Source: a bacterium (GTDB taxonomy: Bacteria > Patescibacteriota > Minisyncoccia > JACQLN01). From it: a stretch of 28,010 nt of DNA. Of the stretch, positions 201-26,382 are shown piece after piece. Location: assembly GCA_030697855.1 (NCBI GenBank), contig JAUYOU010000053.1:1-28010 (forward strand), read 5' to 3'. The notes below the pieces were generated by a model. The model was given only the letters and a program-made list of their open reading frames with translations. It ran no database searches and was not told the DNA's origin. The position numbers were made by a program, and so were the translations under genes. The stretch's first letter is position 1; the number at the start of each line of letters is the position of its first letter.

Positions 201-320
201 CCCCGTAGTGAAATTTCCAGTTAAGTTGATTCATCTTAAATTTAGTAAAAAACGACGACGTCTAAAACTCCCATTAAAAACAAGATCATGCACACAGATT
301 CTGGAAATTCTACTGCGGGG
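201..320. repeat. REP/MITE-like element with imperfect terminal inverted repeats
   Basis: ccccgtagtgaaatttccag (201-220) and ctggaaattctactgcgggg (301-320) are 17/20 inverted. The right arm recurs at 26363-26381 (18/19). Confidence 0.75.
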
Positions 321-1518: not shown

Positions 1519-1531
1519 GCCAAATTTATCT

Positions 1532-1626
1532 AAGAGCGAAGCGATTAGTTGTAAATTTGAGCACCCAGCACCTTTTTACTTTAAAAAGGTGCTGGGTAAG
1601 GTTTGACAGCCAATCGCTCTTCTCTT
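1532..1626. repeat. Long nested hairpin filling the dnaN-yebC spacer
   Basis: Perfect 16-bp stem acccagcaccttttta (1563-1578) / taaaaaggtgctgggt (1582-1597), with outer arms agcgatt/aatcgct and aagag/ctctt. Confidence 0.85.
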
Positions 1627-1629
1627 GGG

Positions 1630-5331: not shown

Positions 5332-6051
5332 ATGATTTCTATTTTTAACGAATTTTTGTATCGCCCACTGTTTAATCTTTTGGTGTTTTTATACAACACT
5401 ATACCGGGTACCGATATAGGTATTGCCATAATTGCTGTAACAGCAGTTGTTAAGCTTGTTTTTTGGCCACTAACGGGTAAAGCAGTTAAATCCCAAAAAG
5501 CTTTGCAAGAGATTCAGCCTAAAATCAAAGAAATTCAGGAAAAATATAAAGACAATAAGGAAGAACAGTCCAGAAAATTGATGGAGTTTTATAAAGAAAA
5601 TAAAGTTAACCCAATGTCTGGGTGCTTTCCTTTGTTGGTTCAAATACCTATTCTTATTGCTTTATACCAAGTCTTTCTTAAAGGATTTGATCCTAAAAGT
5701 TTATCGAGTTTATATTATTTTGTTAGCAACCCAGGAGTTATTAACCCAATATTTTTGGGTTTTGTTAATTTAGCGCTACCAAATAGTATTTTTGCAATAT
5801 TGGCCGGTGTAAGCCAATTTTTTCAAGCAAAAATGACTATGCCTAAAAACAGTAAACTTCCTAATGCTCCAAAAAGTTCCGATGAATATATAACTCAAGC
5901 AATCTCTAAGCAAACTTTGTATTTTTTACCTGTGTTTACCGTTTTAATTTCTTGGAAATTACCTTCCGGACTCGCCCTTTATTGGGTAGTTACAACTTTA
6001 TTTACCCTGTTTCAGCAGTATGTTATTATGCGTTCCACTAGAGTTCGCTAA
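5332..6051 (+). CDS. yidC: YidC/Oxa1 membrane protein insertase (short form)
   Basis: LQEIQPKIKEIQEKYK, NPMSGCFPLLVQIPILIALYQVF and LPSGLALYWVVTTLF. Confidence 0.97.
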   Translation: MISIFNEFLYRPLFNLLVFLYNTIPGTDIGIAIIAVTAVVKLVFWPLTGKAVKSQKALQEIQPKIKEIQEKYKDNKEEQSRKLMEFYKENKVNPMSGCFPLLVQIPILIALYQVFLKGFDPKSLSSLYYFVSNPGVINPIFLGFVNLALPNSIFAILAGVSQFFQAKMTMPKNSKLPNAPKSSDEYITQAISKQTLYFLPVFTVLISWKLPSGLALYWVVTTLFTLFQQYVIMRSTRVR

Positions 6052-6124
6052 TATGGCTAATCGGTGCTAATATAGCGAATGAATTTTTATTAGCTATATT
6101 CGCGTCAATTCGTATATTAGCGAA
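6044..6124. repeat. Palindromic intergenic element of the acgaat/attcgt family (empty)
   Basis: 11-bp perfect terminal IR ttcgctaatat (6044-6054) / atattagcgaa (6114-6124), with internal gctaat/attagc and gcgaat/attcgc units. It contains the yidC stop codon. Confidence 0.8.
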
Positions 6125-6129
6125 AACTT

Positions 6130-6588
6130 ATGGAAAAGACAGAAATAATACGGGAAACTATTTCAAAAATATTTGGTTTTTTAAATATTGAACCAAATAT
6201 AACAATAGAAAATATAAACGGGCGTACCAGAGCCAATGTTTCTACTGCTGAGGCAGGTTTTTTAATTGGCCGAGACGGAGAGAATCTAAGATCTTTTCAG
6301 CACATAGTATCTTTATTGGTGGCTAAAAAAACTGGAGATTTTTCTGTATTCTCCAGTTTTGTGTTCGATATTAATAATTATCAGAAAGAAAAAGAAGACT
6401 ATTTAATAGCTCTCGTCAAAAATAGTGCCGCTAAGGTTTTAGAAACAGGTCAAATAGTAGAGTTAGAGGCTATGTCTGCCTTTGAGAGAAAGATAGTGCA
6501 TATAACAATAGAACAAATTGACGGGGTTAAGAGCGAAAGTATTGGAGACGGAGAAGATAGAAGAGTCATCATAAGCCCAAGGGCTTAA
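6130..6588 (+). CDS. jag: Jag/EloR/KhpB-like RNA-binding protein (KH plus R3H, no Jag_N)
   Basis: KH GxxG motif LIGRDGENL and R3H motif MSAFERKIVH; follows yidC. Confidence 0.9.
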   Translation: MEKTEIIRETISKIFGFLNIEPNITIENINGRTRANVSTAEAGFLIGRDGENLRSFQHIVSLLVAKKTGDFSVFSSFVFDINNYQKEKEDYLIALVKNSAAKVLETGQIVELEAMSAFERKIVHITIEQIDGVKSESIGDGEDRRVIISPRA

Positions 6589-6738
6589 ATTACAAAATAC
6601 AAATCCCAAATTACAAATAAGCACAAAATTCAAAATCCTAAACTCCTAAACTCCTAAACTCCTAAACTCAAAGCTTTGGATATTAGAATTTAGATATTAG
6701 AATTTGTTTGTGATTTGTTATTTGGTACTTGAGATTTG
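6589..6738. repeat. Inverted array of short repeats with an internal 8-mer tandem tract
   Basis: Left arm aaatacaaatcccaaattacaaat; (TCCTAAAC)x4 at 6636-6667; centre aaagcttt 6670-6677; gatattagaattt x2; right arm tttgtttgtgatttgttatttgg. Confidence 0.85.
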
Positions 6739-6740
6739 CT

Positions 6741-7874
6741 TTAAAGCGTTAAGCGATATAAACGCCCGTCTATTTTATTTATAAAGAATAAATATGTTTC
6801 GTCGGGCATAACAAATAAGTTTGAGGCATCAAAAGACCCCTCTATTATTTTTTGTATTTGCCCTGTTTCGGTGTTTATTCTAATGATTTCTTCTCCTTCT
6901 GAACGAACTCTCCTTTTGTAGTAGTCGTCGGGCATTATAAAGTTATCGGGATCGGTAACTTTAAACACAGAACATAATATTACCCTCTCGTCCTGTGTCC
7001 ATGTACATTTTTCGGGCAAGGAAAATAAATTAATGTTACTTTCTGTTTTTTTATCTAAATTTATACTAGAAAGTTTTAAACTGCGCCCTCCAGAATCTGT
7101 TTTGGAAACAAGGATTCTTTTTCCCGAAGGCGAAAAACTAGTGGTTAAGCCATATTCTCCACCCAAGACCCTAGTTGTTTTTTTGTTTTTAATATTAAGC
7201 AGGTAAACTATTCCAGTAGCAAAACCAGAAGGCTTTGTTTCTATAGATATATTATCCGCATTAACCCACTTTATTTTAATGTCCGGAATTTTTGTTGGGA
7301 TAATATCTTTATTTTTTGAAAACTCATCGTAATTTAAGGCTATTTTTTTGCCATTTCTATCGGAATAAACAATAGCCACCTCTTTGTTGCTGTTACCCAA
7401 CGAAACATCTTCTGTTTCTTGAGACAGGGTTTTTAAGGTTTTACTATTAACGTCGTATATTATAAATCTGGTAGCACCCGAAGCTAAACTATATTTAAAA
7501 GATAAAAGTTCGCCCGAACTAGAAACATTAACTTCGCCTATTCTATCTACTGCTACTAAGCCAATTTTGTTTTTGCCACCTCCATTTAAGCTAATTTGAT
7601 TTATACTGCCATCCCAAGCGGCATAAACAATCTTGCTTACCCCAGCTTCTTTGTCGGTTGTGTTAAGCCCAGCGCCTAAAACAGCCTCATCTGTTATAGG
7701 AATTAATCTTTCTTTGGCGTTTGGGGTTAATTCTCCTCCTAATAATTCTTCGTTGGTTGTTACTGGAGAAGTTTCTACGGTTTTTTTAAAGAAAAAATAA
7801 TATATACCAAAACCTATTAAGGTTAAGCCTAAAATTACGGCTAAAATTATTAATATTTTTTTTGATCTCGTCAT
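6741..7874 (-). CDS. Single-TM anchored exported protein, probable beta-propeller/TolB-like fold
   Basis: N-terminal TM (ILIILAVILGLTLIGFGIYYFFF); repeated beta-rich segments (FSPSGKRILVS, WTQDERVILC); conserved Cys pair. Confidence 0.6.
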   Translation of the reverse strand: MTRSKKILIILAVILGLTLIGFGIYYFFFKKTVETSPVTTNEELLGGELTPNAKERLIPITDEAVLGAGLNTTDKEAGVSKIVYAAWDGSINQISLNGGGKNKIGLVAVDRIGEVNVSSSGELLSFKYSLASGATRFIIYDVNSKTLKTLSQETEDVSLGNSNKEVAIVYSDRNGKKIALNYDEFSKNKDIIPTKIPDIKIKWVNADNISIETKPSGFATGIVYLLNIKNKKTTRVLGGEYGLTTSFSPSGKRILVSKTDSGGRSLKLSSINLDKKTESNINLFSLPEKCTWTQDERVILCSVFKVTDPDNFIMPDDYYKRRVRSEGEEIIRINTETGQIQKIIEGSFDASNLFVMPDETYLFFINKIDGRLYRLTL

Positions 7875-7895
7875 TTTTTAAGTATGGTTTTTTCT

Positions 7896-9092
7896 TTATT
7901 TTCCTGGATAAAATATTTCTTTAAGTCCTAGTTTTAAGTCGTCGGTAGATAGCGCACCCTGTTTGAGTTTATTATATAACTGTTTGCCCTTATTTTTTTC
8001 TTCTTCGGTAAGGTTTTTTTGTAATAGTACTTGAAGCATATCCAACCACTCGGTTTCGGTTTTTAAACTAAGTGGACCTGTTCCAATATCAGAAAGAATA
8101 CGAGTGCCAGTAGTTAGTATTTCTATTTGTTCGGTATTTAAACCAGAACCGAGTTCTGATTCAGGAGGTGTTGGATTTTGTGAAGGATTTACTCTATTTT
8201 CTTTCTGTATGCATTTTTTAGTTGCTAAGTCACATTCTGTTCCAATACCACGGCATTCATTAGAAATATCAGTTCTGCAATTTTCGCCTAGCGCTTTATA
8301 AGAACTGCACTCGCCGGATATATTTTCAGCTAATTCGCCAGAAGATGTTTTAAAACATCTTTGTCCTTCGGGGCATTGTGCTGGAAAGCATGTTGATCCC
8401 CCGGCCGTCTTTGTTCCAGCAACACAAATATTTTTTGTATCGTCACAAGTTAAATCTCTGCCACATTCGTAATCTTTTGTGCATGCGTGACCAGCTTCAA
8501 AACCATTAAACAACTCGCCTGTATCGGTGCATATACCACTAGACGATTTACCAGTCTTTACACATGTAAGAAATCCACCACAATCAAAACTCGATCCGCA
8601 AGCTTCTCCTGCAGCGCGTTTAGTAGTAAAAAGTTTTGCCCAAAAATCGAACATACCGCTTGGTGCGTCTGTTCCAAAATTTACGCCAGGGTTTTTTATA
8701 TTAACCAATTGCGGGTTTATTGTTTGCAAAAACAAATAAGAACCTAAAAGTATAACTAAACCTATTATTGCGCTTAGCATTCTCTCTTTTGCTTCTTTAA
8801 TGTTCCCTGGGTTGTCTCCACCTGTCATCCATAAAAGCCCAGCCCTAACAAAGGCATATATTATAGCGAGGCCCACCAGAGCTTGCGCCAAAAGAAAAAT
8901 GTATTTTATCCATTCAGCCGGTCCCATAGATTCCCCAACCTTTACCCCTTGAACTTCTGGAAACTGAACCTCAAGCGCTAAAGCCGAAAAAGGAAAAACT
9001 ACAAAACTCAATAAACAAATAGCAAACAGTACCCAGAATTTTGGATTCCTGATTTTAGAATCAGCACTTGTTTGTAGTTTGGAATTTATCAT
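7896..9092 (-). CDS. T4SS-pilin (VirB2/TrbC-like) domain protein with Cys-rich extracellular repeats
   Basis: Signal peptide (SALA|LE); pilin signature AGLLWMTGGDNPGNIKEAKERMLSAIIGLVILLGSYLFLQTINP; four GxxC...C...C modules. Confidence 0.75.
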   Translation of the reverse strand: MINSKLQTSADSKIRNPKFWVLFAICLLSFVVFPFSALALEVQFPEVQGVKVGESMGPAEWIKYIFLLAQALVGLAIIYAFVRAGLLWMTGGDNPGNIKEAKERMLSAIIGLVILLGSYLFLQTINPQLVNIKNPGVNFGTDAPSGMFDFWAKLFTTKRAAGEACGSSFDCGGFLTCVKTGKSSSGICTDTGELFNGFEAGHACTKDYECGRDLTCDDTKNICVAGTKTAGGSTCFPAQCPEGQRCFKTSSGELAENISGECSSYKALGENCRTDISNECRGIGTECDLATKKCIQKENRVNPSQNPTPPESELGSGLNTEQIEILTTGTRILSDIGTGPLSLKTETEWLDMLQVLLQKNLTEEEKNKGKQLYNKLKQGALSTDDLKLGLKEIFYPGK

Positions 9093-9098
9093 TTGTAA
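9001..9098. repeat. Degenerate inverted short-repeat element overlapping the pilin gene start
   Basis: acaaaactcaataaacaaatagcaaac ... ccagaattttgg ... ttgtttgtagtttggaatttatcatttg resembles the arms of 6589-6738. Confidence 0.5.
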
Positions 9099-9099
9099 A

Positions 9100-9930: not shown

Positions 9931-9933
9931 TTA

Positions 9934-10338
9934 TTAAGATGTTTTGTTCATAATGTTTAGCACTTTTTCCATTTTCTTTTTTTCTCTGTTATGGGCTCGC
10001 CATACAAATAGCGACCAAAATGAGACAGCCGATAACCACGGTACAAATTCCACTACCGCCTTACCAATGAGTCTTTTGTAAATATATTTTTGGGATAAGC
10101 TTAAATTAGTATTCACATAAGCATAAATTAACGGCACCATAAACGTGTTTGTTATTATCCCGATTATTCCGAAGGTAAAAACGCCTAGTGCTTCTATTAT
10201 ATCTAAAATATCTTTAGTTAATGCGGCGGTAAAGATCATGATTGGAAAGACGGGTTCTTTAATATCGCCGTTTTTAACACTCTCAATCTCCTCTTCTGTT
10301 AAGCCCTCGGCAGTTAATTCGGCTAGTTCATTATCCAT
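9934..10338 (-). CDS. Small membrane hypothetical protein
   Basis: Hydrophobic segments and KDILDII / VEFVPWLSAVSFWSLFVW. ATG at 10338 is preferred over TTG at 10350. Confidence 0.7.
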   Translation of the reverse strand: MDNELAELTAEGLTEEEIESVKNGDIKEPVFPIMIFTAALTKDILDIIEALGVFTFGIIGIITNTFMVPLIYAYVNTNLSLSQKYIYKRLIGKAVVEFVPWLSAVSFWSLFVWRAHNREKKKMEKVLNIMNKTS

Positions 10339-10344
10339 AATAAT

Positions 10345-10444
10345 ATGCAAATCTACGAATGCATACGAATCATACTAATGACTTCACAAATTCGTCTTCT
10401 ATTCGCATTATTCGTATCATTCGCATAGATTCGTATATTGGTAT
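10345..10444 (+). repeat. Empty palindromic element matching both ends of the GxxExxY cassette
   Basis: 10345-10381 matches revcomp 13546-13582 at 30/37, and 10410-10444 matches revcomp 13180-13214 at 32/35. Confidence 0.9.
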
Positions 10445-10447
10445 ATT

Positions 10448-12223
10448 TTATTTCTGCTGTTCTGCTAGTTCCTTCTTAGCGGCTTCTATCTCTAATAACT
10501 GTGCTGGGTCCGATGTTATTACTTGGTCTTCTGTGTACGACGCCACAACTTTTATGGCGGCACGCTTTAAACCTGCTAAAAATATTCCTTCGCCTACGTT
10601 AGATTCCAACAGTAAAAACTTTTCTTCGTCTGTTAAATTAAATGTTTGAGCAACCATGTCTATAGCCGCCGGAGACTGTTTTAACAGTATTTGAAGGGCG
10701 GAGTTAGTTACAATCGGCTTGCCATACTGCGATTTCATAAAGTCCTCTACATCTTGGGTTATAGTGGTTAATCCTAAGTAATATTTGCGACATCTTTTAG
10801 CTATACTAAACAAAAATGCTCCAGCTTCTTGGTGTTGCATCATCCACCAAGCCTCGTCCACCACCATTATCCTCTTTTTTCTTTGTGTTCTTATTAAATT
10901 CCAAACATAGTGAAGTAAAATATACATAGCTACTGGGCGAAGTTCTGGTTCAAGGTCTCTTATAGAAAAAACAACAAGGTTATTATTTAAAGTTACGTTT
11001 GTTGGTTGGTTTAAAAACCCAGAAAATGTTCCTGTAACATATTTTTCTATACGAATGGCTAATTTTTCTGCGCCCTGCATATTTTTTAATACAGTGTGTA
11101 AATCGCCCATTAATGGAACCTGCTTACCTCGCCAATCGGAATTTATGCTTATGTCGCGCGACGCATATGTTTCGGTTAAGGCCTTGTCTATAATCGAATC
11201 TTCCTCGGGTGTTAGTTGGCCCAGCATTACTTTTAGTAAGCCGGTAAGTTCTATAATATTAGATTTTAAAATTTCGGCTGGGCTTTCGTCTTCGCCTGGT
11301 GTGGTTAAATCGAATGGGTTTATATGGTTAGAAGAAGTTAAAGAAATATTTACAAAGGTTCCGCCTACTACATCGTTTAAATATTTATACTCGCTTTCGG
11401 GGTCGATAATAATTACATCGGTCCCAAGCATTAAAGAACGTAAAACTTCTAGCTTTACGGTGTAGCTTTTTCCAGAGCCAGATTTAGCAAAAACAACTGT
11501 ATTGGCGTTTTCCAAAGAAAATCTGTCAAAAAGTATAAGGCTATTGTTGTGTCTGTTTATGCCGTAAAGCACCCCTTTATTAGATGTAAGATCTGCAGAA
11601 ACAAAAGGAAAGAAAGAAGAAAGCGGACCAGTATTTAAACTGTTATGTACCTGAAGCTTATCTAGGTTTAAAGGCAGTGTAGATGTATAGCCTTCTTGTT
11701 GTTGAAATACCGCAACTTTAGAGTAAATTAATTTTGATTCTAGAATAGTATTTATCTTGTTTTCTACATCATCTAATTCCTTAACAGATGACGCATAAAA
11801 AGTTATATATAAACCAGCTCTAAAAAATCTTTCGGTGCCTTGTTGCAATTTATCGCGTAAGGATTCTAAATCTTGGTATGCGGTTTCTAACATTGGGTCG
11901 CGAATATAGCCCCCTTCTTCTTTTTCCGACATCTGCGCACCAATTTGAGCTGTTTTTTTAGTTAGTTTTTTTAGAACTGGGCCGGTTTCCGAAGGTTCAA
12001 TAAATAAAGAAACGTCGAAGGTTTTATCTAGGTTAATAATTGGCGAAAACCAGCCAACGCTTAAAAAACGTGGGTAAGCTGCTACAAACAATGTTCTAGA
12101 AAATTTATCACCTATTTGCAAATTAGAAGGGTTAACTTGCAAAGCAGGTGGAGCCAAAAGATCTTCTAGGCTACCGGCCGAGGAAATTTGTTGGTTTTTA
12201 GGTTCTGTATTTTGTTGATCCAT
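10448..12223 (-). CDS. virB4: VirB4-like T4SS ATPase
   Basis: Walker A variant FAKSGSGKS, VIIIDPESEY, INPFD, LVVFSIRDL, Walker B VVDEAWWMM, and RCRKYYLGLTTITQDVEDF. Confidence 0.9.
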   Translation of the reverse strand: MDQQNTEPKNQQISSAGSLEDLLAPPALQVNPSNLQIGDKFSRTLFVAAYPRFLSVGWFSPIINLDKTFDVSLFIEPSETGPVLKKLTKKTAQIGAQMSEKEEGGYIRDPMLETAYQDLESLRDKLQQGTERFFRAGLYITFYASSVKELDDVENKINTILESKLIYSKVAVFQQQEGYTSTLPLNLDKLQVHNSLNTGPLSSFFPFVSADLTSNKGVLYGINRHNNSLILFDRFSLENANTVVFAKSGSGKSYTVKLEVLRSLMLGTDVIIIDPESEYKYLNDVVGGTFVNISLTSSNHINPFDLTTPGEDESPAEILKSNIIELTGLLKVMLGQLTPEEDSIIDKALTETYASRDISINSDWRGKQVPLMGDLHTVLKNMQGAEKLAIRIEKYVTGTFSGFLNQPTNVTLNNNLVVFSIRDLEPELRPVAMYILLHYVWNLIRTQRKKRIMVVDEAWWMMQHQEAGAFLFSIAKRCRKYYLGLTTITQDVEDFMKSQYGKPIVTNSALQILLKQSPAAIDMVAQTFNLTDEEKFLLLESNVGEGIFLAGLKRAAIKVVASYTEDQVITSDPAQLLEIEAAKKELAEQQK

Positions 12224-12225
12224 AT

Positions 12226-12894: not shown

Positions 12895-12895
12895 T

Positions 12896-13174
12896 TTATT
12901 TTTTCTTCCACAAGTATAATTGCGGTTTTAACGAAAACTTAATAAACGACGATATATATTTTAATGCTGGTATGCCTTTAATTTTACCAAACGCTAGTAT
13001 TATGGCGGCTAAAGCCACGGGAATAGAAAGTGTTATAGCAAAAGCTGTGGTAAGTGTTTTTAAAAATATAAAACAAAGTACGCCAGCAACAGCCACAAAA
13101 CCAAACTGTTTTAAAGTTAACGGGCCTATTATTTTATCTTCTATTTCTATAAATTGTGGTACTTGGAACTGCAT
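12896..13174 (-). CDS. prgI: PrgI family (VirB3-like) membrane protein
   Basis: MQFQVPQFIEIEDKIIGPLTLKQF signature and two TM helices. Confidence 0.88.
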   Translation of the reverse strand: MQFQVPQFIEIEDKIIGPLTLKQFGFVAVAGVLCFIFLKTLTTAFAITLSIPVALAAIILAFGKIKGIPALKYISSFIKFSLKPQLYLWKKK

Positions 13175-13179
13175 AAAAT

Positions 13180-13582
13180 ATACTAATTTACGAATCTATG
13201 CGAATTATACGAATAGGTTTTAAATACTTGCTTCTAAAATTTACTAATATACCTAATTTTATTTTATGATCTTGAAGATATCTCTGTGTTTGTGTAAAAT
13301 GTTCTCTTAAAACAAACGGGGTAGCTTTAATTTCCAATATTATTTTGTTGTCTATTACAAAATCGGGTATATTTTTAAGCGATGTTTCTTTTTCTCTTAT
13401 GTAATTAATCTTAGCATCTTTCAGTAATGACTCTATTGCATCAGAATACTGTTTCTCCCTACAAAATCTTTCCAACTCGTTATGTACTTTAAAAAGAATC
13501 CCATTTATTTTATAAGAAAGTTCTTTGTATATAATTTTCGTGTCTTCATTTGTATAATTCGTACCCATTCGCATATTGGCAT
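13180..13582 (-). mobile_element. Palindrome-bounded GxxExxY gene cassette (filled form)
   Basis: Inverted acgaat/attcgt arrays at 13180-13214 and 13546-13582 overlap the gene ends. An empty counterpart sits at 10345-10444. Confidence 0.6.
13188..13574 (-). CDS. GxxExxY family PD-(D/E)XK nuclease-like protein
   Basis: LFKVHNELERFCREKQY (ExxY kept, G replaced), DFVIDNKIILEIKA, QTQRYL and LGILVNF. The start may be ATG at 13568. Confidence 0.88.
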   Translation of the reverse strand: MRMGTNYTNEDTKIIYKELSYKINGILFKVHNELERFCREKQYSDAIESLLKDAKINYIREKETSLKNIPDFVIDNKIILEIKATPFVLREHFTQTQRYLQDHKIKLGILVNFRSKYLKPIRIIRIDS

Positions 13583-13583
13583 A

Positions 13584-14300: not shown

Positions 14301-14304
14301 ATTT

Positions 14305-16587: not shown

Positions 16588-19229
16588 TATGGATTATTAC
16601 CATCACAAAAATCTTTTACAAAGTGATTTTTATAGAAATCATATATAAAAGCCGAGTAAATTAATTGGAAACGATTTTTATAATATTTTTCCCACTCACT
16701 ATCACCACCATCAATAGATGTTCGCTTTCTTTCTTCTGGATCAGATATCACTATGCCTAGTCTATTTAAGACATCTGTTTGTTGCTGACCTATTTTTAAT
16801 TGACGTTCTTCCATCTCGCCTTTTATAGATTCAGCATTAATATCCATAGCTTCAGCTACGGCTTGGGCTATCCCTAGCCCTAATTGAGTTGGGTCTATTT
16901 TTTCTTTGGTATATGGATCTCCTTGAATATTCTCATCTTTTTGTAGGTCGTTATCTATTTCCTCTATGGAAGCCAATACTAAACCTAGAGCCTTTTCTAT
17001 TCCCTTATTCCCGTTTTCAGGGTCTTCCAAGCCATGAATTTTTTGTTTAGCTCTTACTTGTTCTTCTGGGGTGCCACTACTTACTAAATCTTTTTGAGCT
17101 TGTAACCACGCATTTCTTGTGTTTCTTTGAGCTACTCGTAATTCGGTATAAGCATTTCTTAACGTGACATCATTATCTTTTTTGCCGTTCGATAACGCGT
17201 CATTGTAAGTTTTTATTTTTTTAACTAAATCAAATGTTCTGCCTGCGCGGTCGTAGTCCAACAACACCGATGTATAAAGGGCAATTTTAGGTTGGTTTGT
17301 TTTTACAAAACCCGAATCATTTTCTAACCCATCAATTGTTCCAGCGCTATTTTGAGACAGAGCGTCATAGGAATCTGCGATTTGTTGGTACTCTTCGCTT
17401 TTAGTATCAGCCCGGTACGCTTTATCTATAATGTTACTTTTAGTATCATCTATTGAATTTCTCGGACTAGCTTCAAATCTACTCTTTAGATTTTTTATAT
17501 AGCTATTGTCGTTCCCAAACCAACCAACAACAGCTCCGTCGGGATCATTAAATGGTAATGCATTTTTGTAGTCAGTAGTGTCGATGATTTTTGTTTCTAA
17601 TGAGTAATCAATGGCTTTGCAAGAATTTTTACCATTGTAAATATTGTTGTTTTCGGACAAATCGTCAAAAGTTACACTAATCGCTTTCCATACATCACTT
17701 AATTTTTGATTTACAGCTTTATTTGCTAGGTATATGCCAGGATTATTTTCTTCCTTATGAAAATCAACTCTATCTCCATAACTCGTATAGAAAAGAAAGT
17801 CCATTTCATCGGATAATTTTTTAAAATTTTCTCTACCTCTTAAACTTTCATTAACAATACCGTCTGAATAGTTTATTTTTTCACTATCATTAAATTTACC
17901 AGCAATAAGATCTAATCGATTTTGAAGCTTTGTTAGTTGGTTACTTCTGTTGGTTGTTAGTTTGGTGGTGTCAGATTTTAGCCTTTCTGCGGCAGTGCGC
18001 AAATCAATCATTTGGTTTTGTAAACTTATCGCCTCTGGACTTTCTAGTCCGGTAAGTTGCTGCACCGTCCCACTGTTTTTAGTTGATGGATTAAAAGATT
18101 GTGTATAAGAACCTCTCCCACTTTTCATATATGATAAACCTTCGCGCGCAGCTCTATTAATTGCTGCATCTAATACGGCATCTAGTATGGAGGCTATATC
18201 GTTGGCACCAATCAAACTATCTATCCCTAGTTTTTCTAAGCCACCCCCAACCCATTCGCCAACAATACTGCCTGGCGTAATAATTTCTTCTTTGCCGCAA
18301 GTCGCGCCAGGTCGAACATTTCCAGGTGGATCTATTGGCACAGTTGTAAATTCTCCTGTGGGTACAAGTCTAGATGTTGGTATGTTTACATCCGAAATAC
18401 TAATTCCAAGTTCGCCTGTAATTTGTGGCCAAATCGTCGCCCAGTCGTATTCAAAATTTGCTTCATTTAGTATATTTCTAGCCCCAGGAACATCCTCCAA
18501 AGTTACCTCTCTTAATGTTCCATCATTTTCATAAAATTCTAATGTATAGTGAGCATACTTTGCCACCGAACATTTCTTTTGGTCTAAAAACCCTTTGCCC
18601 GCCGATATTTTTGCTGTTGCGGTATTTCCTGCAATAGCTGTTTCTGCTCCAATAAGTTGCGAAGATGCTAAATATGTTCCAGGTAATGTGTTTCTAGTTT
18701 CGTGTAATTTTAACCATGTGGTCCATCCACCGTCCTCGAAGTTTTCTGCAAAGTTAGTTAAGTTATCTTTTATATCTCCTAAACTGCAACGTAACTGGTC
18801 TTCTTGTAGTAGTTTAGTTCTGTTTACTAAAAGTTGAACATTAGCTTTAAACGGAGAACAAATATCTGTACCATGTTGTGTAAAAAATTTATCTATACCA
18901 GACACAGCTGCATATTGAGCATTATCTTTAATAAATTTACCTGTGTCTGTTATAAATCTTGGTTCACCATTACCCTGCACCCAGTTAACCAAATCGTTTT
19001 GAATCTGGGTTAACATTCTTTTTTTTAGTTTTCTTAGTCCTGCTTCAGCCAGCTTTGTTCCTATTTGATACAGAATTCTAGGAATGTCTCCCATCGTTGT
19101 GTTAAACGTAATGTCTCCAACACCCAAAAAAGCATCAGCTGTTTTTACTGTAAAAGGCGAAACAAAATAAAACCCCATAAGGCTTACTAAAACAAAAGAG
19201 GAAACAATTTTTTTAAATCTGTTAGACAC
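16587..19229 (-). CDS. Large exported hypothetical protein of the T4SS-like cluster
   Basis: 880 aa; signal peptide (TADA|FL); DICSPF, FEDGGWTTW, GKGFLDQKKC and ITPGS motifs; coiled-coil-like C-terminal half. Confidence 0.75.
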   Translation of the reverse strand: MSNRFKKIVSSFVLVSLMGFYFVSPFTVKTADAFLGVGDITFNTTMGDIPRILYQIGTKLAEAGLRKLKKRMLTQIQNDLVNWVQGNGEPRFITDTGKFIKDNAQYAAVSGIDKFFTQHGTDICSPFKANVQLLVNRTKLLQEDQLRCSLGDIKDNLTNFAENFEDGGWTTWLKLHETRNTLPGTYLASSQLIGAETAIAGNTATAKISAGKGFLDQKKCSVAKYAHYTLEFYENDGTLREVTLEDVPGARNILNEANFEYDWATIWPQITGELGISISDVNIPTSRLVPTGEFTTVPIDPPGNVRPGATCGKEEIITPGSIVGEWVGGGLEKLGIDSLIGANDIASILDAVLDAAINRAAREGLSYMKSGRGSYTQSFNPSTKNSGTVQQLTGLESPEAISLQNQMIDLRTAAERLKSDTTKLTTNRSNQLTKLQNRLDLIAGKFNDSEKINYSDGIVNESLRGRENFKKLSDEMDFLFYTSYGDRVDFHKEENNPGIYLANKAVNQKLSDVWKAISVTFDDLSENNNIYNGKNSCKAIDYSLETKIIDTTDYKNALPFNDPDGAVVGWFGNDNSYIKNLKSRFEASPRNSIDDTKSNIIDKAYRADTKSEEYQQIADSYDALSQNSAGTIDGLENDSGFVKTNQPKIALYTSVLLDYDRAGRTFDLVKKIKTYNDALSNGKKDNDVTLRNAYTELRVAQRNTRNAWLQAQKDLVSSGTPEEQVRAKQKIHGLEDPENGNKGIEKALGLVLASIEEIDNDLQKDENIQGDPYTKEKIDPTQLGLGIAQAVAEAMDINAESIKGEMEERQLKIGQQQTDVLNRLGIVISDPEERKRTSIDGGDSEWEKYYKNRFQLIYSAFIYDFYKNHFVKDFCDGNNP

Positions 19230-20008
19230 TATTTTATTTTCGATAACTTATCGTATTCAAGTAATGTGCTTTGCCAAAATTCTCCTAGTGTTTCTGTATC
19301 ATTAAAAACAATCAACGTCTTTAGTGGATCGCTATCGCTATTTATTAACGATTCAAATATTTTTTGAAGCGAATAAGCTGTAACTATTATTTTTTTATGC
19401 GTTTCTAGTAAACCTTCCGGTGTTTTTGTTTTTGATAAATTTTCAAAGACCGTGCTTAGTTTAGAAACCTGTGATTCAAGACTGCTTACATCGGCTCCAT
19501 CTTCGGATAGTTTCTCGGGGTTTGTTTTTGAGAATTCTTTAAGTGCATTAAAAATTGTTATAGCGTCTTTGTTTGTATCTTTAAAATATTGAACCCTAGC
19601 TGTTTTAGAATCTTTAACTATTTTTAAAACAGAATTGGGTATCTCGGGAAACAAGTTTAGGTTGTTACCTCTTAAATAAGGAATAATGGTGCTCGCCAAG
19701 AAATCACTACTAGCTATTTTTTCGGCAGTGTTTTGATTTATACCACCACTTTCCGAGACTATGGTTTTTAAAAAATCATCTGTTAAATTTTTGTCTTCTG
19801 GCGCAACATAAGCATTCTGGCTTTCTTTTTCTTGCTCGTTAAGTGTTAAAAGTTCGGCCAATAGTTCGTCGCTAGATTTACCAGCAGATAACGGCGTAGA
19901 AGCTTCTTCTTCGCCATAGGTTACAGTTGTTCTTAAAACTAAATAAGCGCCGCCAATCAAACCCAGTAGGAATATTACGATGGTAATTGTTAGGAAACGT
20001 TTGGACAT
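19229..20008 (-). CDS. Single-TM anchored hypothetical protein
   Basis: N-terminal TM and helical ectodomain. Its TAG overlaps the GTG of the next gene. Confidence 0.75.
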   Translation of the reverse strand: MSKRFLTITIVIFLLGLIGGAYLVLRTTVTYGEEEASTPLSAGKSSDELLAELLTLNEQEKESQNAYVAPEDKNLTDDFLKTIVSESGGINQNTAEKIASSDFLASTIIPYLRGNNLNLFPEIPNSVLKIVKDSKTARVQYFKDTNKDAITIFNALKEFSKTNPEKLSEDGADVSSLESQVSKLSTVFENLSKTKTPEGLLETHKKIIVTAYSLQKIFESLINSDSDPLKTLIVFNDTETLGEFWQSTLLEYDKLSKIK

Positions 20009-20016
20009 TATATTAA

Positions 20017-20443
20017 AAGCTTTTTAGGTGTTAGCTTTCTAGCTTCTTAGTTTATTAACCATTGAATTTAACATTCTCATTACTTCGTCTAGCAGGGTAT
20101 CAACCTTTGAATAATTTAGAGGTGCTGTTTTCGGCAATCTCTTCGCTATTTCTATTTGAGTTTCTAATTCGCCTCCCGAAGCAAATGCAGTTAACAGGAA
20201 TTGTCTAAATTCTTTGCGGTAACCACGCATTCTACCCTCAGCGATGTTTGAGGGAACTGATACGGATGCCCGCCTCATTTGTGAAGTTAGTCCGAATATT
20301 TCTTCTCGGGGAAACTTTTCTGTTAACTCATAAATAGCCACAACTAACTCAAGCGATTTCTGCCAGACAATCAATTGTTTATATGAATGAATCAACACAG
20401 ATTTTTCTAGGAAGCTAATATCCTAGAAAGCTAATAAGCTATT
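20017..20443 (-). mobile_element. Palindrome-bounded four-helix-bundle cassette (filled form)
   Basis: Left arm ttagctttctagcttcttag (20031-20050) and right arm ctaggaagctaatatcctagaaagctaataagcta (20407-20441). An empty counterpart sits at 23297-23353. Confidence 0.6.
20039..20398 (-). CDS. Four helix bundle protein (S23/23S rRNA IVP, bAvd-like family)
   Basis: SYKQLIVWQKS, FPREEIFGLTSQMRRASVSVPSNIAEG, FLLTAFASGGELETQ. Confidence 0.95.
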   Translation of the reverse strand: MLIHSYKQLIVWQKSLELVVAIYELTEKFPREEIFGLTSQMRRASVSVPSNIAEGRMRGYRKEFRQFLLTAFASGGELETQIEIAKRLPKTAPLNYSKVDTLLDEVMRMLNSMVNKLRS

Positions 20444-20527
20444 CTAAATTTTAACACTAATAAATGCTTTTTACGCCCGCAAATTTATTAATGTTTTCCA
20501 CAGAAAAACGGCAAAAACATTAATAAA

Positions 20528-21325
20528 CTATAATAGTTTATATAATTCGATGAGTTCTTCTTTGCTTAGGTTTTGAGCGCGTATTTTTTTATCGAATTCT
20601 AGTTGTTTAAAAATATTTTCTATAGTTTCAAGTTTGGCAGAATTTGTTTTTCTAAGATTATTAAAAAGTGTTTGGCGAGGCTGTTTAAAGGCGTTGTGTA
20701 GAAAGGCTATGTATTTGCCTAGATCTATGTCTTTTGGCCAATCTTGTGGAATTATCCTTATAATTGCCGAATCTACCTCTGGCTTTGGCCAGAAGTTATC
20801 CTTACCAACCATAAACAAAACCTCTGTTTTGGCCATAAACTGCACAAAAGACGATAAAAAGTTAGCTTTTGGTGGGTTTGCTGTAATTCTTTCGGCTACC
20901 TCCTTTTGAACCATAAGGATTAATTCTAATGGTTTATTGGGCGAAAGTAGGAATTTTTGTATTAACTTACCCGTTAAATAGTAAGGAATATTGGCTATAA
21001 CCCTATAGGGCGATTTGATTGTTGTTTCGTCAAATTTTAAAATGTCTCCTTCAACAATTTTTAATTTTTCATTTTTAATTTTTAAATCTAGCAACGACGA
21101 CAGATTCTCATCTTTCTCTATCGCTACTACGTTTGCTCCAGCCTCCAATAACGCCACGGTTAAGTTTCCTGTTCCTGGTCCTACTTCTAAAATATGTTCC
21201 CCTTTTTTAATATTGGCTTCAGAAATAATACGTTCTATTATTTCTTCGGAAACTAAAAAATTTTGACCAAAGTGTTTAATAGGTTCTAAGTCTTTTTCTT
21301 TTAGTTCTTTTTTTGTTCGATTCAT
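20528..21325 (-). CDS. rsmA: 16S rRNA m6(2)A dimethyltransferase RsmA/KsgA
   Basis: KHFGQNFL, LEVGPGTGNLT, VIANIPYYLT, LMVQKEVAERI and FWPKPEVDSAII. Confidence 0.97.
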   Translation of the reverse strand: MNRTKKELKEKDLEPIKHFGQNFLVSEEIIERIISEANIKKGEHILEVGPGTGNLTVALLEAGANVVAIEKDENLSSLLDLKIKNEKLKIVEGDILKFDETTIKSPYRVIANIPYYLTGKLIQKFLLSPNKPLELILMVQKEVAERITANPPKANFLSSFVQFMAKTEVLFMVGKDNFWPKPEVDSAIIRIIPQDWPKDIDLGKYIAFLHNAFKQPRQTLFNNLRKTNSAKLETIENIFKQLEFDKKIRAQNLSKEELIELYKLL

Positions 21326-21360
21326 ACTTTAGGGTTTAGAAATTAGTGTTTTGGATTTTA

Positions 21361-23271
21361 TTATATATCCAAGACCTCGCCTTCAAATTGGTATTCTTCA
21401 AAATCAACCAGTCTTATTGGTATATCACCCAAAAAACGCGAAGGCAAGGCGGGTTCACTTTTTCCATAAATAGTTCTTCTTCGTGTAAAAACAAAATATG
21501 CTTTTTCTTTAGCTCGGGTTATACCAACATAAGCCAATCTCCTTTCTTCTTCCATTTGTGTTTGTTCGAACATGCTTCGAGAATGTGGTAATAGGCCTTC
21601 CTCGGCACCAATAATAAATACTACAGGGAATTCTAAGCCTTTAGCGGAATGTAACGTCATTAAATTTAATGTTCCGTTTTCTTCGGAAATATCGTCGGCA
21701 GAAGTTGTTAATGTTATTTCTTCTAAAAAAGAAGATAAACCTTCTTCTGTTTCTAAAATATCGAACTTAGTAGCTACAGTAATAAGTTCTAAAATATTTT
21801 CCCAGCGCGATTCGCCTTCTTCGGTGCCATCTACACAATAAGTTTTATAATCTATTTTTTCTAATAAAAATTTTATAAGTTCGGAAACTTTTTTGTTGGC
21901 CGATTCTTTTTTAATTTCACTAATTAAGGCAAGAAAGTTTTCAAACTTAGTGTGTTTAAAAGCAAGAATATATTCGGCTAAAAGAATTTGGTTGAGTGTG
22001 GTTTTGCCTATGCCACGTGGCGGAACATTAACAATTCTTTTTAAACTAATTAAATCTTTTTCGTTTTGGATAAAACGTAAGTAAGCAATAATATCTTTAA
22101 CTTCGCGCCTTTCGTAAAATTTAGTAGCCCCCACCATTCTATATGGCCAACCGGCGCGTATTACAGCTTCTTCTATGGCTCGGGATTGAGCATTGGTGCG
22201 GTAAAGAATAACAAAATCGTTTAGATCGCGCGCGATTTCTGGGTTTTTTCTTAGTACTTTCTTAATTTCTTCTGTTACAAAAAAACCTTCTTCGGTTTCA
22301 TTGTTTGTTTGAATTATTTTTATTTTTTCTCCTTCGCCGCGTTCGGTCCATAATTTTTTTTCTGTTTTAAAAACATTTTTTTCTATAACAGCGTGGGCCG
22401 CATCTAAAACATTTTGAGAGCTTCTGTAGTTTTCTTCTAAAAATATTATTTTAGTACCAGGGTAATCTTTTTCAAAATTAAGCATGTTTCTAAAATCGGA
22501 TCCTCTAAACAGATATATCGATTGCCAATCGTCACCCACCACACAAATATTTTTGTGTGTTTGGGCCAACATTTTTAACAAAGTATATTGAGCATGGTTA
22601 GTGTCTTGGTATTCGTCTACCAAAATATATTTAAATTGGTTTTGATATTTTTCTAGTACAGCTGGATTATTTTTTAATATTTTAACCAACAACAAAAGCA
22701 GGTCATCAAAATCTAAAGCATTAGCTTCTTTTAACCTACCCTCATATTTTTCGAAAACTTTGGCTATTATTTTTTCTCTAAAGTTTCCTGCTTTTTCGGC
22801 ATAAATCGTGGCATTAACAAGCTCGTTTTTTTGGCGCGATATTGCCGAATATATTCCATTTGCTTTAAATTGATCTGAATCTAAACCAAGTTCAGCAATA
22901 ATTTCTTTTAAAAGAGAAAGTACGTCGCTTACATCGTATATAACAAAATTTTTACCATAACCAATATTATCTATTTCTTTTCTTAAAATTCTTGCGGCAA
23001 AAGAATGAAACGTTCCCAAAAAAACCGACATATTTTTATTTTCGCCTAAAAGTTTTTGGACCCGGTTTTTCATTTCGCCCGCAGCTTTATTTGTAAAAGT
23101 TAAAGCCAGAATATTTTCTGGAGAAATTCCTTGTTCTATTAAATAGGCAATTCTATGAGTAAGGGCTTTGGTTTTTCCGCTGCCTGCGCCGGCAATTATT
23201 AAAACGGGACCATTTATAGTAGTTACCGCTTCGCGTTGTTCTTTGTTTAACGATTCTAGAATATTAGACAT
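21361..23271 (-). CDS. pcrA: UvrD/PcrA SF1A DNA helicase (compact form)
   Basis: AGAGSGKT, LTFTNKAA, LVDEYQDTN, VGDDWQSIY, LEENYRS, LMTLHSAKGLEF and EEERRLAYVGITRA. Confidence 0.95.
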   Translation of the reverse strand: MSNILESLNKEQREAVTTINGPVLIIAGAGSGKTKALTHRIAYLIEQGISPENILALTFTNKAAGEMKNRVQKLLGENKNMSVFLGTFHSFAARILRKEIDNIGYGKNFVIYDVSDVLSLLKEIIAELGLDSDQFKANGIYSAISRQKNELVNATIYAEKAGNFREKIIAKVFEKYEGRLKEANALDFDDLLLLLVKILKNNPAVLEKYQNQFKYILVDEYQDTNHAQYTLLKMLAQTHKNICVVGDDWQSIYLFRGSDFRNMLNFEKDYPGTKIIFLEENYRSSQNVLDAAHAVIEKNVFKTEKKLWTERGEGEKIKIIQTNNETEEGFFVTEEIKKVLRKNPEIARDLNDFVILYRTNAQSRAIEEAVIRAGWPYRMVGATKFYERREVKDIIAYLRFIQNEKDLISLKRIVNVPPRGIGKTTLNQILLAEYILAFKHTKFENFLALISEIKKESANKKVSELIKFLLEKIDYKTYCVDGTEEGESRWENILELITVATKFDILETEEGLSSFLEEITLTTSADDISEENGTLNLMTLHSAKGLEFPVVFIIGAEEGLLPHSRSMFEQTQMEEERRLAYVGITRAKEKAYFVFTRRRTIYGKSEPALPSRFLGDIPIRLVDFEEYQFEGEVLDI

Positions 23272-23277
23272 CACAAA

Positions 23278-23286
23278 ATTATAGCA
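23278..23286 (-). promoter_or_regulatory. Extended -10 promoter giving a probably leaderless pcrA mRNA
   Basis: TGCTATAAT, followed by 6 nt and ATG at 23271. Confidence 0.6.
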
Positions 23287-23296
23287 GATATAAATT

Positions 23297-23353
23297 AAGC
23301 TTCTTAGCTTTCTAGCTTCCTAGTAAGCTAATTCCTAAAAAGCTAAAAGCTAG
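23297..23353. repeat. Empty palindromic element matching both ends of the four-helix-bundle cassette
   Basis: 23304-23323 matches 20031-20050 at 19/20. 23325-23352 matches 20412-20441 with two 1-nt indels and one substitution. Confidence 0.9.
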
Positions 23354-26310: not shown

Positions 26311-26382
26311 GCCCCGCTAATGAATTTCCAATTTTTTTTCGCCTTTCCTTCGGAAAGGATTTTGGAAATTCTACTACGGGGC
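26311..26382. repeat. REP/MITE-like element with internal hairpin
   Basis: gccccgctaatgaatttccaa / ttggaaattctactacggggc (16/21 inverted), with an internal stem cctttcc-ttc-ggaaagg (26342-26358). Confidence 0.75.

Follow-up and report, generated by a model that had tools for sequence, protein, structure and literature searches.

The window, i.e., the whole 28,010-nucleotide stretch of DNA analysed here, belongs to the 685-kb genome of a groundwater CPR bacterium (labelled G000 below). Within it, the genes for a GxxExxY protein and for a four-helix-bundle (4HB) protein each lie between inverted arrays of short units, and similar arrays are found elsewhere in the window with no gene between them:

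6034-6137, plus strand: gene-less palindrome of the GCTAATAT family (GxxExxY type), which fills the yidC-jag junction
6588-6740, no strand assigned: third array, composite and weakly palindromic, with CAAAT/ATTTG and CCTAAACT/TAGAATTT units; jag and gene 6741-7874 are convergent around it
10335-10458, minus strand: gene-less palindrome of the ACGAAT family, which fills the junction of genes 10448-12223 and 9934-10350
13540-13583, minus strand: 5' arm of the GxxExxY cassette, with ACGAAT/GCGAAT units; holds the listed ATG of the ORF
13188-13574, minus strand: cargo gene for the GxxExxY / PDDEXK_3 nuclease (128 aa), co-directional with the surrounding T4SS-like operon
13175-13220, minus strand: 3' arm of the GxxExxY cassette, with ACGAAT units; encodes the tail and stop of the ORF
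20398-20441, minus strand: 5' arm of the 4HB cassette, with TTAGCTT-type units (TAG on the sense strand)
20039-20398, minus strand: cargo gene for the four-helix-bundle / 23S_rRNA_IVP protein (119 aa), with the motif G..Q.RRA..S...NIAEG
20017-20053, minus strand: 3' arm of the 4HB cassette, with TTAGCTT-type units; overlaps the ORF stop
23290-23353, no strand assigned: gene-less palindrome of the TTAGCTT family, located in a divergent spacer, approximately 20 nt before the start of pcrA

The first-pass annotation had reported imperfect inverted arrays lying tightly between genes and running over stop codons. All of them were found in place, and the operon junctions are filled from stop to start. 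For example, the yidC stop codon TAA (6049-6051) lies inside the first unit of the palindrome at 6034-6137 (RNA z = -8.3), and the jag ATG (6130) is at the base of the stem. This palindrome had been assigned to the same family as the ACGAAT arms; instead, it matches the arms of the other GxxExxY gene of the genome, on contig C25. The 3' arm of the GxxExxY cassette stops approximately 1 nt short of the ATG (13174) of a PrgI-like gene, and that of the 4HB cassette approximately 10 nt short of the ATG of gene 19229-20008. The palindrome at 10335-10458 still contains the initial codons and the end of the GxxExxY ORF, shares 92.7% identity with the arm at 13175-13220 over 41 nt, and has near-identical copies on contigs C29 and C62. 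The element at 23290-23353 consists of the two arms of the 4HB cassette joined directly (RNA z = -5.3). The third array folds weakly (z = -2.2) and corresponds to family 11 in the clustering described below; its right arm (6683-6705) matches the 3' arm of a 4HB cassette in the sister species G007 at 22 of 23 positions. Thus, the view that two of the three families carry cargo is right for those two, but the third does so as well. Similarly, an operon-junction setting applies to most arrays but not to the third array, between convergent genes, or to 23290-23353, in its divergent spacer.

In a profile search, the GxxExxY protein matches TIGR04256 (67 bits against a cut-off of 35, 1.8e-18), and it also matches PF13366 (PDDEXK_3; 3.3e-18). 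Its catalytic D..ExK residues, D54, E64, and K66, show no variation across 11 copies, and its predicted structure has a PD-(D/E)XK fold (pLDDT 91). This fold is generic (best structural match, Z 7.6) and therefore gives no hint of the substrate. The 4HB protein matches TIGR02436 (119 bits against a cut-off of 24, 9.2e-35), PF05635 (1.8e-35), and PDB entry 2gsc (6e-23). The kinship with Avd that had been noted is a distant one (bAvd, 7e-07), and the score falls below the cut-off of the Avd model (24 against 80 bits). An assignment as the DGR accessory protein Avd was rejected; the only reverse transcriptase gene of the genome lies on another contig (C33).

Palindrome families and cassette architecture

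The genome-wide inverted-repeat search and motif clustering that the first-pass annotation had recommended revealed 274 inverted repeats, compared with 71-91 in Markov shuffles; 50 of them have 20 or more matched bases, whereas the shuffles contain 3-4 such repeats. This confirms that the palindromes are real and occur above chance. Clustering yielded more than 10 dispersed palindrome families, which comprise 205 regions and 2.5% of the genome. The TTAGCTT family has 21 clustered regions, a count that leaves out 23290-23353 and both arms of the window's 4HB cassette. The GCTAATAT family has 17, among them both arms of the GxxExxY cassette on contig C25, and the ACGAAT family has nine, including both of those that flank the GxxExxY gene of the window. 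These three families are nearly confined to spacers between co-directional genes, and the median gap that separates them from their neighbours ranges from -12.5 to +2.5 nt; the background occupancy of junctions by such elements is 23%. The predicted RNA folding of solo, i.e., gene-less, hairpins reaches z = -4 to -8.

All four families represented in the window are built alike: two inverted unit arrays extend from the upstream stop to the downstream start. The arm pairs are either bare or enclose one gene, which encodes a four-helix-bundle protein (PF05635) or a GxxExxY PD-(D/E)XK nuclease. A full cassette spans approximately 400-500 bp, and each of its arms is a tandem array of approximately 3-5 short units; the ends of the 4HB cassette are predicted to form 18 base pairs, a stem around one PF05635 ORF. 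Cassettes lie between co-directional host genes with the cargo oriented as these genes and are therefore presumably transcribed with the operon. The cargo is co-directional with both neighbours in 41 of 50 4HB cassettes and 24 of 33 GxxExxY cassettes, and the arms adjoin the neighbouring genes (median gaps of -1 to +3.5 nt). The flanking inverted-repeat score exceeds the 95th percentile of controls in 71% of 4HB and 82% of GxxExxY cassettes (Mann-Whitney P = 1.6e-19), and 68% of 79 GxxExxY genes, from many phyla and from Methanothrix, have arms scoring 28 or more. The gene-less hairpin of 70-130 bp is the product of internal gene deletion, and such hairpins outnumber full cassettes by approximately 6-20 to 1. 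As the earlier annotation had proposed for palindrome-bounded elements of one class, both gene-carrying and gene-less forms are found, and it is probable that the arrays are gene-less and gene-bearing copies of one class of small insertable cassettes.

The type of arm follows the class of cargo. The 4HB arms consist of TAG-core units spaced by 7-8 nt (mode 7), and the GxxExxY arms of CNRAT-core units spaced by 8-12 nt (mode 10); both cores are polar relative to the enclosed gene. The density of CNRAT per 10 nt is 0.71 in GxxExxY arms versus 0.05 in 4HB arms, and that of TAG is 0.64 in 4HB arms versus 0.04 in GxxExxY arms (P = 8e-10 for the difference between arm classes; 53 + 39 cassettes). 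However, 4HB genes are associated with at least nine arm unit types within this bacterial family alone, and GxxExxY arms in other phyla shift to CACAGAG-type units. The unit sequence is particular to each lineage, and there is therefore not one motif per cargo. The notion that each cargo type has its own arm motif, for which a comparison across CPR and other phyla had been suggested, thus survives at the level of core class and spacing but not at that of unit sequence. It should be noted that co-descent of gene and arms would by itself also yield an association between arms and cargo.

Junctions in sister species

Cassettes come and go between sister species: a given junction may hold the element in one species, a remnant decayed in place or a member of another family in the next, and nothing in a third. 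For example, the whole GxxExxY cassette is precisely absent in G004 and G003, where TAA-n-ATG is left, and survives in G006 and G009 as an in-place remnant with an internal deletion, whereas G007 and G005 have a 4HB cassette at this junction. The window's 4HB cassette is present in four relatives and absent in five, and the yidC-jag junction is occupied by three different families or is empty across relatives; further junctions behave likewise. Re-use of a junction by another family was found in 9 of 27 comparisons, which is not clearly above the 23% background occupancy. In the comparisons of filled with empty junctions, no clear target-site duplication and no transposition intermediate were seen. 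At yidC-jag, approximately 35 nt of host sequence is replaced, affecting approximately the last eight YidC codons and the SD-bearing spacer; the claim that operons are not disrupted thus goes too far. The genome of G004 (100% complete) has neither a GxxExxY gene nor a Y1 transposase gene and has at least eight GCTAATAT hairpins as well as CACGAAT-type hairpins. Hairpins therefore persist, and may have spread, without a resident GxxExxY protein.

Judging from sequence divergence, gene and arms are both under purifying selection. The dN/dS of cargo genes is 0.04-0.14, and cassette arms are 83-97% identical at dS values of 0.6 to >2.5, at which synonymous sites are saturated. In one cassette pair, the proteins are 61% identical and the arms 91% identical, and the window's 4HB arm at 20398-20441 is identical to its G006 counterpart at 26 of 26 positions despite a gene dS of 1.41. 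Conservation is lower in gene-less copies (30-93% at orthologous sites) than in cassette arms.

Because gene-less copies vastly outnumber gene-bearing ones and hairpins are present in a genome without the cargo gene (G004), the hairpins might be REP/BIME-like and owe their movement to Y1 (RAYT-like) transposases or to replication and repair by the host, with the genes as secondary passengers in their loops. Indeed, the search for trans-acting enzymes that had been advised revealed, in addition to the reverse transcriptase gene, three Y1_Tnp genes in G000, each of which lies between REP-like hairpins and one of which is itself an insertion polymorphism. The cassettes also resemble REP/RAYT systems (REPtrons) in having a gene between inverted repeats and many gene-less copies located just after stops between co-directional genes. 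However, the RAYT genes have a simple hairpin of another kind (TCTATTGAAGT...) and not unit arrays on either side, the cassette arms differ from single GTAG-headed palindromes, PF05635 or PF13366 takes the place of a Y1 HUH transposase as cargo, and G004 keeps its hairpins with no Y1_Tnp gene at all. Moreover, gene and arms travel together across phyla. Gene-less copies keep the first codons and tail of GxxExxY and decay in place in G006 and G009; this suggests that they derive from full cassettes by deletion and not from an invasion of hairpins by genes. That the genes are only passengers is thus quite unlikely. It is also rather unlikely that the hairpins are host-beneficial RNA elements (RNase III sites, mRNA stabilisers, or means of translational coupling) to which the cassette genes are incidental. 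This would fit the stop-to-start placement, the stable predicted RNA hairpins with the start codon at their base, the retention of one TTAGCTT solo hairpin in four species, the presence of an RNase III gene (rnc), and the polarity relative to transcription (4/4 for ACGAAT, approximately 2:1 for GCTAATAT, and 12/18 for TTAGCTT); RNase III is also the enzyme that cuts rRNA intervening sequences built in this way (PMC4990558). Nonetheless, this polarity is not absolute, the junctions are freely empty in sister species, mismatches and arm asymmetry are conserved, and G:T mismatches on the sense strand are not more frequent than A:C mismatches (55 vs. 65). With no wobble signature and with conserved arm asymmetries, the RNA-hairpin mechanism envisaged in the first pass is also not supported.

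Movement via RNA by means of the Avd-like 4HB protein and a reverse transcriptase, as in diversity-generating retroelements, appears very improbable. The distant similarity to bAvd and the reverse transcriptase gene on contig C33 would be its components, but the Avd model score is below its cut-off, no 4HB match occurs on C33, poly-A and template/variable-repeat features are lacking, and GxxExxY cassettes have the same build without an Avd-like protein. Ordinary intrinsic terminators or attenuators conserved in place, which the first-pass annotation had named as one of two findings that would overturn its proposal, can practically be dismissed. Hairpins do occur near gene ends, and the third array lies between convergent genes; however, most arrays are inside operons between co-directional genes, are AT-rich with a start codon directly after them, lack a GC-rich stem with a T-run, belong to multicopy families, and vary among sister species at a given junction, where they may be present, missing, or exchanged for another element.

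Relation to known systems and a possible role of the arms

No description of this cassette design in protein-coding operons was found in the literature. The class had been presumed undescribed, which holds in this respect, but its neighbours have been published (PMC4990558, PMC11893778, PMC4692102). In the 23S rRNA of Coxiella burnetii (helix 45) and Leptospira, ORF-bearing intervening sequences (IVS; S23p ORF) are units of approximately 430 nt with one PF05635 ORF inside a stem of terminal inverted repeats; they are sporadic and are viewed as selfish and horizontally acquired (PMC4990558). The 4HB cassette likewise has a terminal inverted-repeat stem around one PF05635 ORF. However, the cassettes are located in mRNA operon junctions and not in rRNA helices, their arms are tandem arrays of 7-8-nt units, and they include a second cargo class, the GxxExxY nuclease, as well as abundant gene-less derivatives. 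Their classification as 23S insertions was rejected, as all lie between protein genes. The 23S gene of G004 is uninterrupted, and no 4HB match occurs within the 23S of G003 or G006 (23S is not assembled in G000).

MITEs such as Correia/NEMIS of Neisseria are 100-150 bp long, have terminal inverted repeats, are co-transcribed with their neighbours, and originate as internal-deletion derivatives; their transcripts form hairpins. The cassettes differ in that neither a DDE transposase partner nor a target-site duplication was seen and in that their arms are composed of tandem units. With free-standing homing endonuclease genes they share a small nuclease gene wedged between conserved genes and a presence/absence polymorphism in close relatives, but only the cassettes have palindromic unit-array arms and gene-less hairpin derivatives. 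Cyanobacterial STRRs belong to the same group as bacterial heptamer repeats. The heptamer repeats GGGAATC and GGGGAYT of Xanthomonas and Nostoc form runs of approximately four 7-nt units, are enriched between aligned ORFs near stop/start codons, and are transcribed; they are described as tandem and G4-forming, without a protein partner or a gene-bearing form (PMC4692102). In contrast, the heptamer arrays found here occur in inverted pairs and frame a 4HB gene. A nuclease gene located between copies of its own dispersed hairpin target has a published precedent in the Ssn/SRM system (Chenal et al. 2025), in which the gene lies between hairpin-forming NTS/SRM repeats that are also dispersed without a gene, and each Ssn homologue has its own repeat variant (PMC11893778). 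The cassettes are similar in having a small gene between hairpin repeats and many gene-less copies elsewhere. However, Ssn is a GIY-YIG nuclease with a single short hairpin, whereas the cassettes have unit-array arms and encode either a PD-(D/E)XK nuclease or a helical bundle that is not a nuclease.

For the insertable cassettes favoured here, analogy with Ssn/SRM and RAYT/REP raises the possibility that the arms are specific nucleic-acid targets of the enclosed proteins, which would add two new protein-repeat partnerships to these two; we advance this tentatively, with slightly more doubt than conviction. The arm units would then be recognition sites of the cassette's own protein. GxxExxY would act as a site-specific nuclease at CNRAT or CACAGAG arrays phased by approximately 10 nt, and its action there would start repair-mediated copying, while a pentameric, Avd-like 4HB protein would bind heptamer arrays. 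On the mRNA, the folded arms might draw stop and start codons together, and this proximity would keep translational coupling and explain the tolerance of inserts; the stop-to-start placement suggests an effect on translation coupling.

If the arms are indeed targets of their own proteins, this would explain rRNA IVS, heptamer repeats, and much of the intergenic hairpins in bacteria and some archaea. The rRNA IVS would become a special case of a general insertable unit, and ignored intergenic hairpins and heptamer repeats would be relics of such cassettes. For PF05635 and PF13366, which are very common 'hypothetical' families, it would provide a role in the genome and a nucleic-acid partner that can be tested. 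In CPR bacteria and other organisms with reduced genomes, the elements occupy approximately a quarter of operon junctions and rewrite gene ends. Finally, GxxExxY nucleases, if sequence specific and each provided with its own array, would represent a natural library of new specificities, and the Ssn family is a precedent that such a library is possible (PMC11893778).

As a separate observation, G000 also has a GIY-YIG gene (C29:9352-9606), which lies inside a ACCCAGCACC palindrome of the Ssn/SRM-like kind.

Repeat families and their place between genes

The genome that holds the window as its contig C6 (G000; 685 kb in 92 contigs, 34% GC, 98.8% complete, from a groundwater metagenome) is rich in inverted repeats. 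A whole-genome scan returned 274 ungapped inverted repeats, compared with 71-91 in Markov shuffles, and 50 with at least 20 matched bases, compared with 3-4. When compared with itself, the genome yielded more than 10 families of dispersed short repeats, with 205 regions that add up to 17.3 kb (2.5% of its length). The arrays named in the first-pass annotation, which proposed several families of palindrome-bounded elements, were all found in the window. Its "acgaat" family comprises two families, F3 and F4, both linked to GxxExxY (PD-(D/E)XK nuclease) genes. Neither Rfam nor a tRNA scan gave a match in the window.

Genes of the window in the range of the arrays
5332-6051, + strand, yidC
6130-6588, + strand, jag/KhpB
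12896-13174, - strand, PrgI-like gene, member of a T4SS-like minus-strand operon
13188-13574, - strand, GxxExxY/PDDEXK_3 gene
20039-20398, - strand, four-helix-bundle (4HB)/23S_rRNA_IVP gene
20528-21325, - strand, ksgA
21361-23274, - strand, pcrA

Dispersed repeat families
F2, TTAGCTT-type units, 21 regions, a count that leaves out two unclustered matches in the window, the solo (23290-23353) and the 4HB gene arms
F3, GCTAATAT-type units, 17 regions, including 6034-6137 and the arms of the second GxxExxY gene of the genome (contig C25)
F4, ACGAAT units, 9 regions, including 10335-10458 and the arms of the window GxxExxY gene
F11, ATTTGTAATTTG units, akin to the third array (6588-6740)

Families F2, F3 and F4 are nearly confined to spacers between co-directional genes, which they fill (median gaps to the neighbouring genes, -12.5 to +2.5 nt). 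In the yidC-jag element, the first unit contains the yidC stop codon, and the predicted hairpin has the jag ATG at its base. The families favour one polarity with respect to transcription without keeping to it strictly (4/4 for F4, about 2:1 for F3 and 12/18 for F2). Among 92 cassettes gathered in this bacterial family and in sampled members of its phylum, in which two inverted arms enclose one 4HB or GxxExxY gene, the cargo points the same way as the genes on either side in 41 of 50 4HB and 24 of 33 GxxExxY cases, and the arms adjoin the neighbouring genes (median gaps, -1 to +3.5 nt). Comparison of groundwater metagenome contigs with the window found the arms in many contexts across the community.

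Two further properties of the junctions were considered. Shine-Dalgarno (SD) motifs follow 1 of 29 hairpins compared with 109 of 621 (P = 0.04), a weak signal based on crude start-codon calls, and loss of the motif downstream of hairpins was set aside. Stop codons in all three frames are enriched in 4HB arms (0.55 vs. 0.27 in shuffles) and depleted in GxxExxY arms (0.07 vs. 0.20), which rules them out as a general rule of arm design.

Arm class and cargo class

The association between arms and cargo was measured as the best inverted repeat across each gene. Among 35 cassettes of this bacterial family, 71% of those with a 4HB gene and 82% of those with a GxxExxY gene score above the 95th percentile of 576 control genes (Mann-Whitney P = 1.6e-19, with relatives that are not independent). 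A second, independent set of 79 GxxExxY genes was drawn from many phyla and Methanothrix; the arms score at least 28 in 68% of them, and 80% exceed the best of 20 shuffles.

Arm properties by cargo class (cassettes with an arm score of at least 28; 4HB from 40 genomes, GxxExxY from 24)
Dominant period, 4HB arms: 7 in 17/18 periodic 5' arms and 20/22 periodic 3' arms
Dominant period, GxxExxY arms: less regular
4HB core, sense strand of 5' arm: TAG, 0.64 per 10 nt (reverse orientation 0.12)
GxxExxY core, sense strand of 5' arm: CNRAT (CGAAT, CTAAT, CGGAT and others), 0.71 per 10 nt (reverse orientation 0.10)
Core of the other class: CNRAT 0.05 per 10 nt in 4HB arms; TAG 0.04 per 10 nt in GxxExxY arms
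Core spacing: 4HB mode 7; GxxExxY mode 10, range 8-12

The arm class goes with the cargo class, and the classes differ in the density of both cores (P = 8e-10 for CNRAT and P = 8e-8 for TAG). Within each class, the unit sequence varies by lineage; the 4HB arms of this bacterial family alone comprise nine or more unit types, and in other phyla GxxExxY arms consist of CACAGAG, CGCAGAG or CACGGAG units with TTCACC..GGTGAA termini. The earlier suggestion that each cargo type has an arm motif of its own is borne out for classes of arms, but not for any single motif. As these GxxExxY unit types are common to hosts of different phyla, the gene and its arms move as one unit.

Where dS is measurable, the cargo genes have dN/dS values of 0.04-0.14, and the arms are 83-97% identical in pairs with synonymous dS of 0.6 to more than 2.5; in one pair, the proteins are 61% and the arms 91% identical. 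Gene-less copies at orthologous sites are looser (30-93%). The catalytic D..ExK residues of GxxExxY are invariant, and its AF2 model, at pLDDT 91, shows the PD-(D/E)XK fold in a generic form. A PDB sequence search with the protein gave no match, and because fold searches recovered only this generic fold (SwaI, Z 7.6; archaeal Hjc, 7.1; best Foldseek E-value 0.014), a specific role as a cruciform or Holliday-junction resolvase was dropped.

In some relatives (loci L068, G008:C4:1875-2219; L064, G007:C10:7223-7567; L128, G127:C32:2280-2624), the GC-richer arm (ACGCGGAT units) lacks a stop, which leaves the GxxExxY frame open for 736-787 codons, so that the upstream protein could carry the nuclease as a C-terminal extension. 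Elsewhere in G000, a conserved protein of 200-270 aa (C84:897-1100), with orthologues in 9 of 10 relatives searched, matches only the first 70 positions of the 4HB profile. It does not form a cassette and has the look of a fusion, either domesticated or ancestral.

In the literature, heptamer repeats have been located between aligned ORFs (PMC4692102), 4HB genes have been found wedged among cas genes (PMC3936711), and PDDEXK_3 proteins are described as having unknown function and many transfers (PMC3424549). Our literature search found no account of repeat-armed 4HB or GxxExxY cassettes at operon junctions, nor of gene-less relics.

Filled, decayed and empty junctions

At the junction between PrgI and its upstream gene, G000 carries the GxxExxY cassette, and G006 and G009 carry the same cassette with the gene internally deleted in place. 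This junction holds a 4HB cassette with CTAAATCC-type arms in G007 and G005, the gene-less form of that 4HB cassette in G002, and nothing in G004 and G003 (..TTTAGC TAA n ATG..). The window 4HB junction is filled in G000, G006, G005 and G008 and empty in G004, G003, G007, G009 and G001. At the yidC-jag junction, G000 and G007 carry F3, G004 and G001 carry an ACGAAT-type element, G008 carries another family, and five genomes have no insert. Of three junctions on contig C42, one has a single F2 solo common to four species, another is occupied by F2 in two species and by a CACGAAT-type solo in two more, and the third has F3 in two species, another family in one and no element in one.

The cassettes and hairpins are thus inserts. 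The opposing explanation, that the palindromes are ordinary terminators conserved in place, is contradicted by the filled, decayed, differently filled or empty state of the same junctions among relatives, and the core of the first-pass interpretation, a class of inserted cassettes with class-specific arms, is supported. Its view that junctions are left undisturbed does not hold at yidC-jag, where the insert replaces approximately eight YidC codons and the SD-bearing spacer. No target-site duplication was seen when filled and empty alleles were compared among relatives. Re-use of a junction by another family occurs in 9 of 27 comparisons, which is not clearly above the background occupancy of 23% (108/466 co-directional junctions); therefore, no site targeting is claimed, and "hot-spots" were rejected as unproven.

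Several local features accompany these junctions. In four genomes with an empty yidC-jag junction (G006, G010, G009 and G003; loci L008, L007, L009 and L004), a short hairpin still spans the yidC stop (for example TTCCGCACC..GGTGCGGAA), with the same outer bases as the filled junction in G000; it could be a native coupling hairpin or what an older element left behind. The first approximately 20 codons of the gene at 19229-20008 (window 19950-20008) exist in two forms, MSKRFLTIT.. and MINHPRKYFWLG.. (compared with loci L024, L026 and L027), which follow the presence or absence of the 4HB cassette and not overall relatedness; this suggests allelic exchange of the cassette and its flank. Between ksgA and this cassette, a non-coding stretch of approximately 90 nt (20445-20535) is 77-90% identical in matching relatives, above the flanking genes. 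It has a perfect 14-nt inverted repeat (20484-20497/20514-20527), a TAAAAT box and no Rfam match, and looks like a terminator together with the promoter of the T4SS-like operon.

Proposed recognition of the arms and candidate enzymes

The first-pass annotation considered an RNA-hairpin mechanism conceivable. Gene-less copies have stable predicted RNA folds (z = -4 to -8). However, 34 oriented hairpins have no excess of sense-strand G:T mismatches (55) over A:C mismatches (65), and the F3 consensus has conserved non-complementary positions, with CTAAT on one arm opposite ATTCG on the other, kept across species. It is therefore the sequence of each individual arm that is conserved, and the RNA mechanism finds no support here. 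Such conservation fits protein recognition better than an RNA-stem requirement, and the approximately 10-nt phasing of GxxExxY cores would set them on one face of duplex DNA. We infer a mechanism in which the arms would be cognate sites of the enclosed protein, and the gene-less hairpins would be deletion relics of cassettes, whose presence would be tolerated since the stop and start codons remain together.

The 4HB ORFs are also known from rRNA intervening sequences, which have a 28-bp inverted-repeat stem at their ends and are cut by RNase III (PMC4990558), and from CPR rRNA insertions (PMC11270868). In the relatives, no 4HB gene lies inside the 23S gene (23S is not assembled in G000), and an rRNA link of the window cassette was dropped.

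The first-pass annotation had suggested looking for a trans-acting reverse transcriptase (RT), HUH/RAYT enzyme or tyrosine recombinase. G000 encodes one RT, one Xer-type recombinase, RNase III and three Y1_Tnp (RAYT-like) genes, each of the last bracketed by its own simple hairpin (e.g., TCTATTGAAGTTCCACTTCAATAGA).

Y1_Tnp genes of G000
C42:4794-5468, missing at the orthologous site in G004 and G003
C47:1274-1966
C52:8784-9473

G004 (100% complete) has neither Y1_Tnp nor a GxxExxY gene and yet keeps at least eight F3 hairpins as well as CACGAAT-type hairpins. Hairpins therefore persist without either gene, which is the main caution against a simple model in which a nuclease mobilises its own relics.

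Other palindromes occur in the same genome. An 84-aa GIY-YIG nuclease gene (C29:9352-9606) lies in the loop of a ACCCAGCACC...GGTGCTGGGT palindrome, an arrangement that resembles the published Ssn/SRM system (PMC11893778); this family has gene-less copies, one at window 1516-1640 with a perfect 16-bp stem (1563-1597). A dispersed family of approximately 20 copies (CCCCGTAG..GAAATTCC/GGAATTTC..CTACGGGG; window 201-320 and 26311-26382) has GTAG/CTAC heads, as in classical REPs, and a variable interior. Two PaaX/Cas2-like regulator genes (C42:20554-21237 and C77:2482-3063) are flanked by TGTTAACA..CGATCG..TGTTAACA palindromes, likelier to be operator sites than mobile arms.
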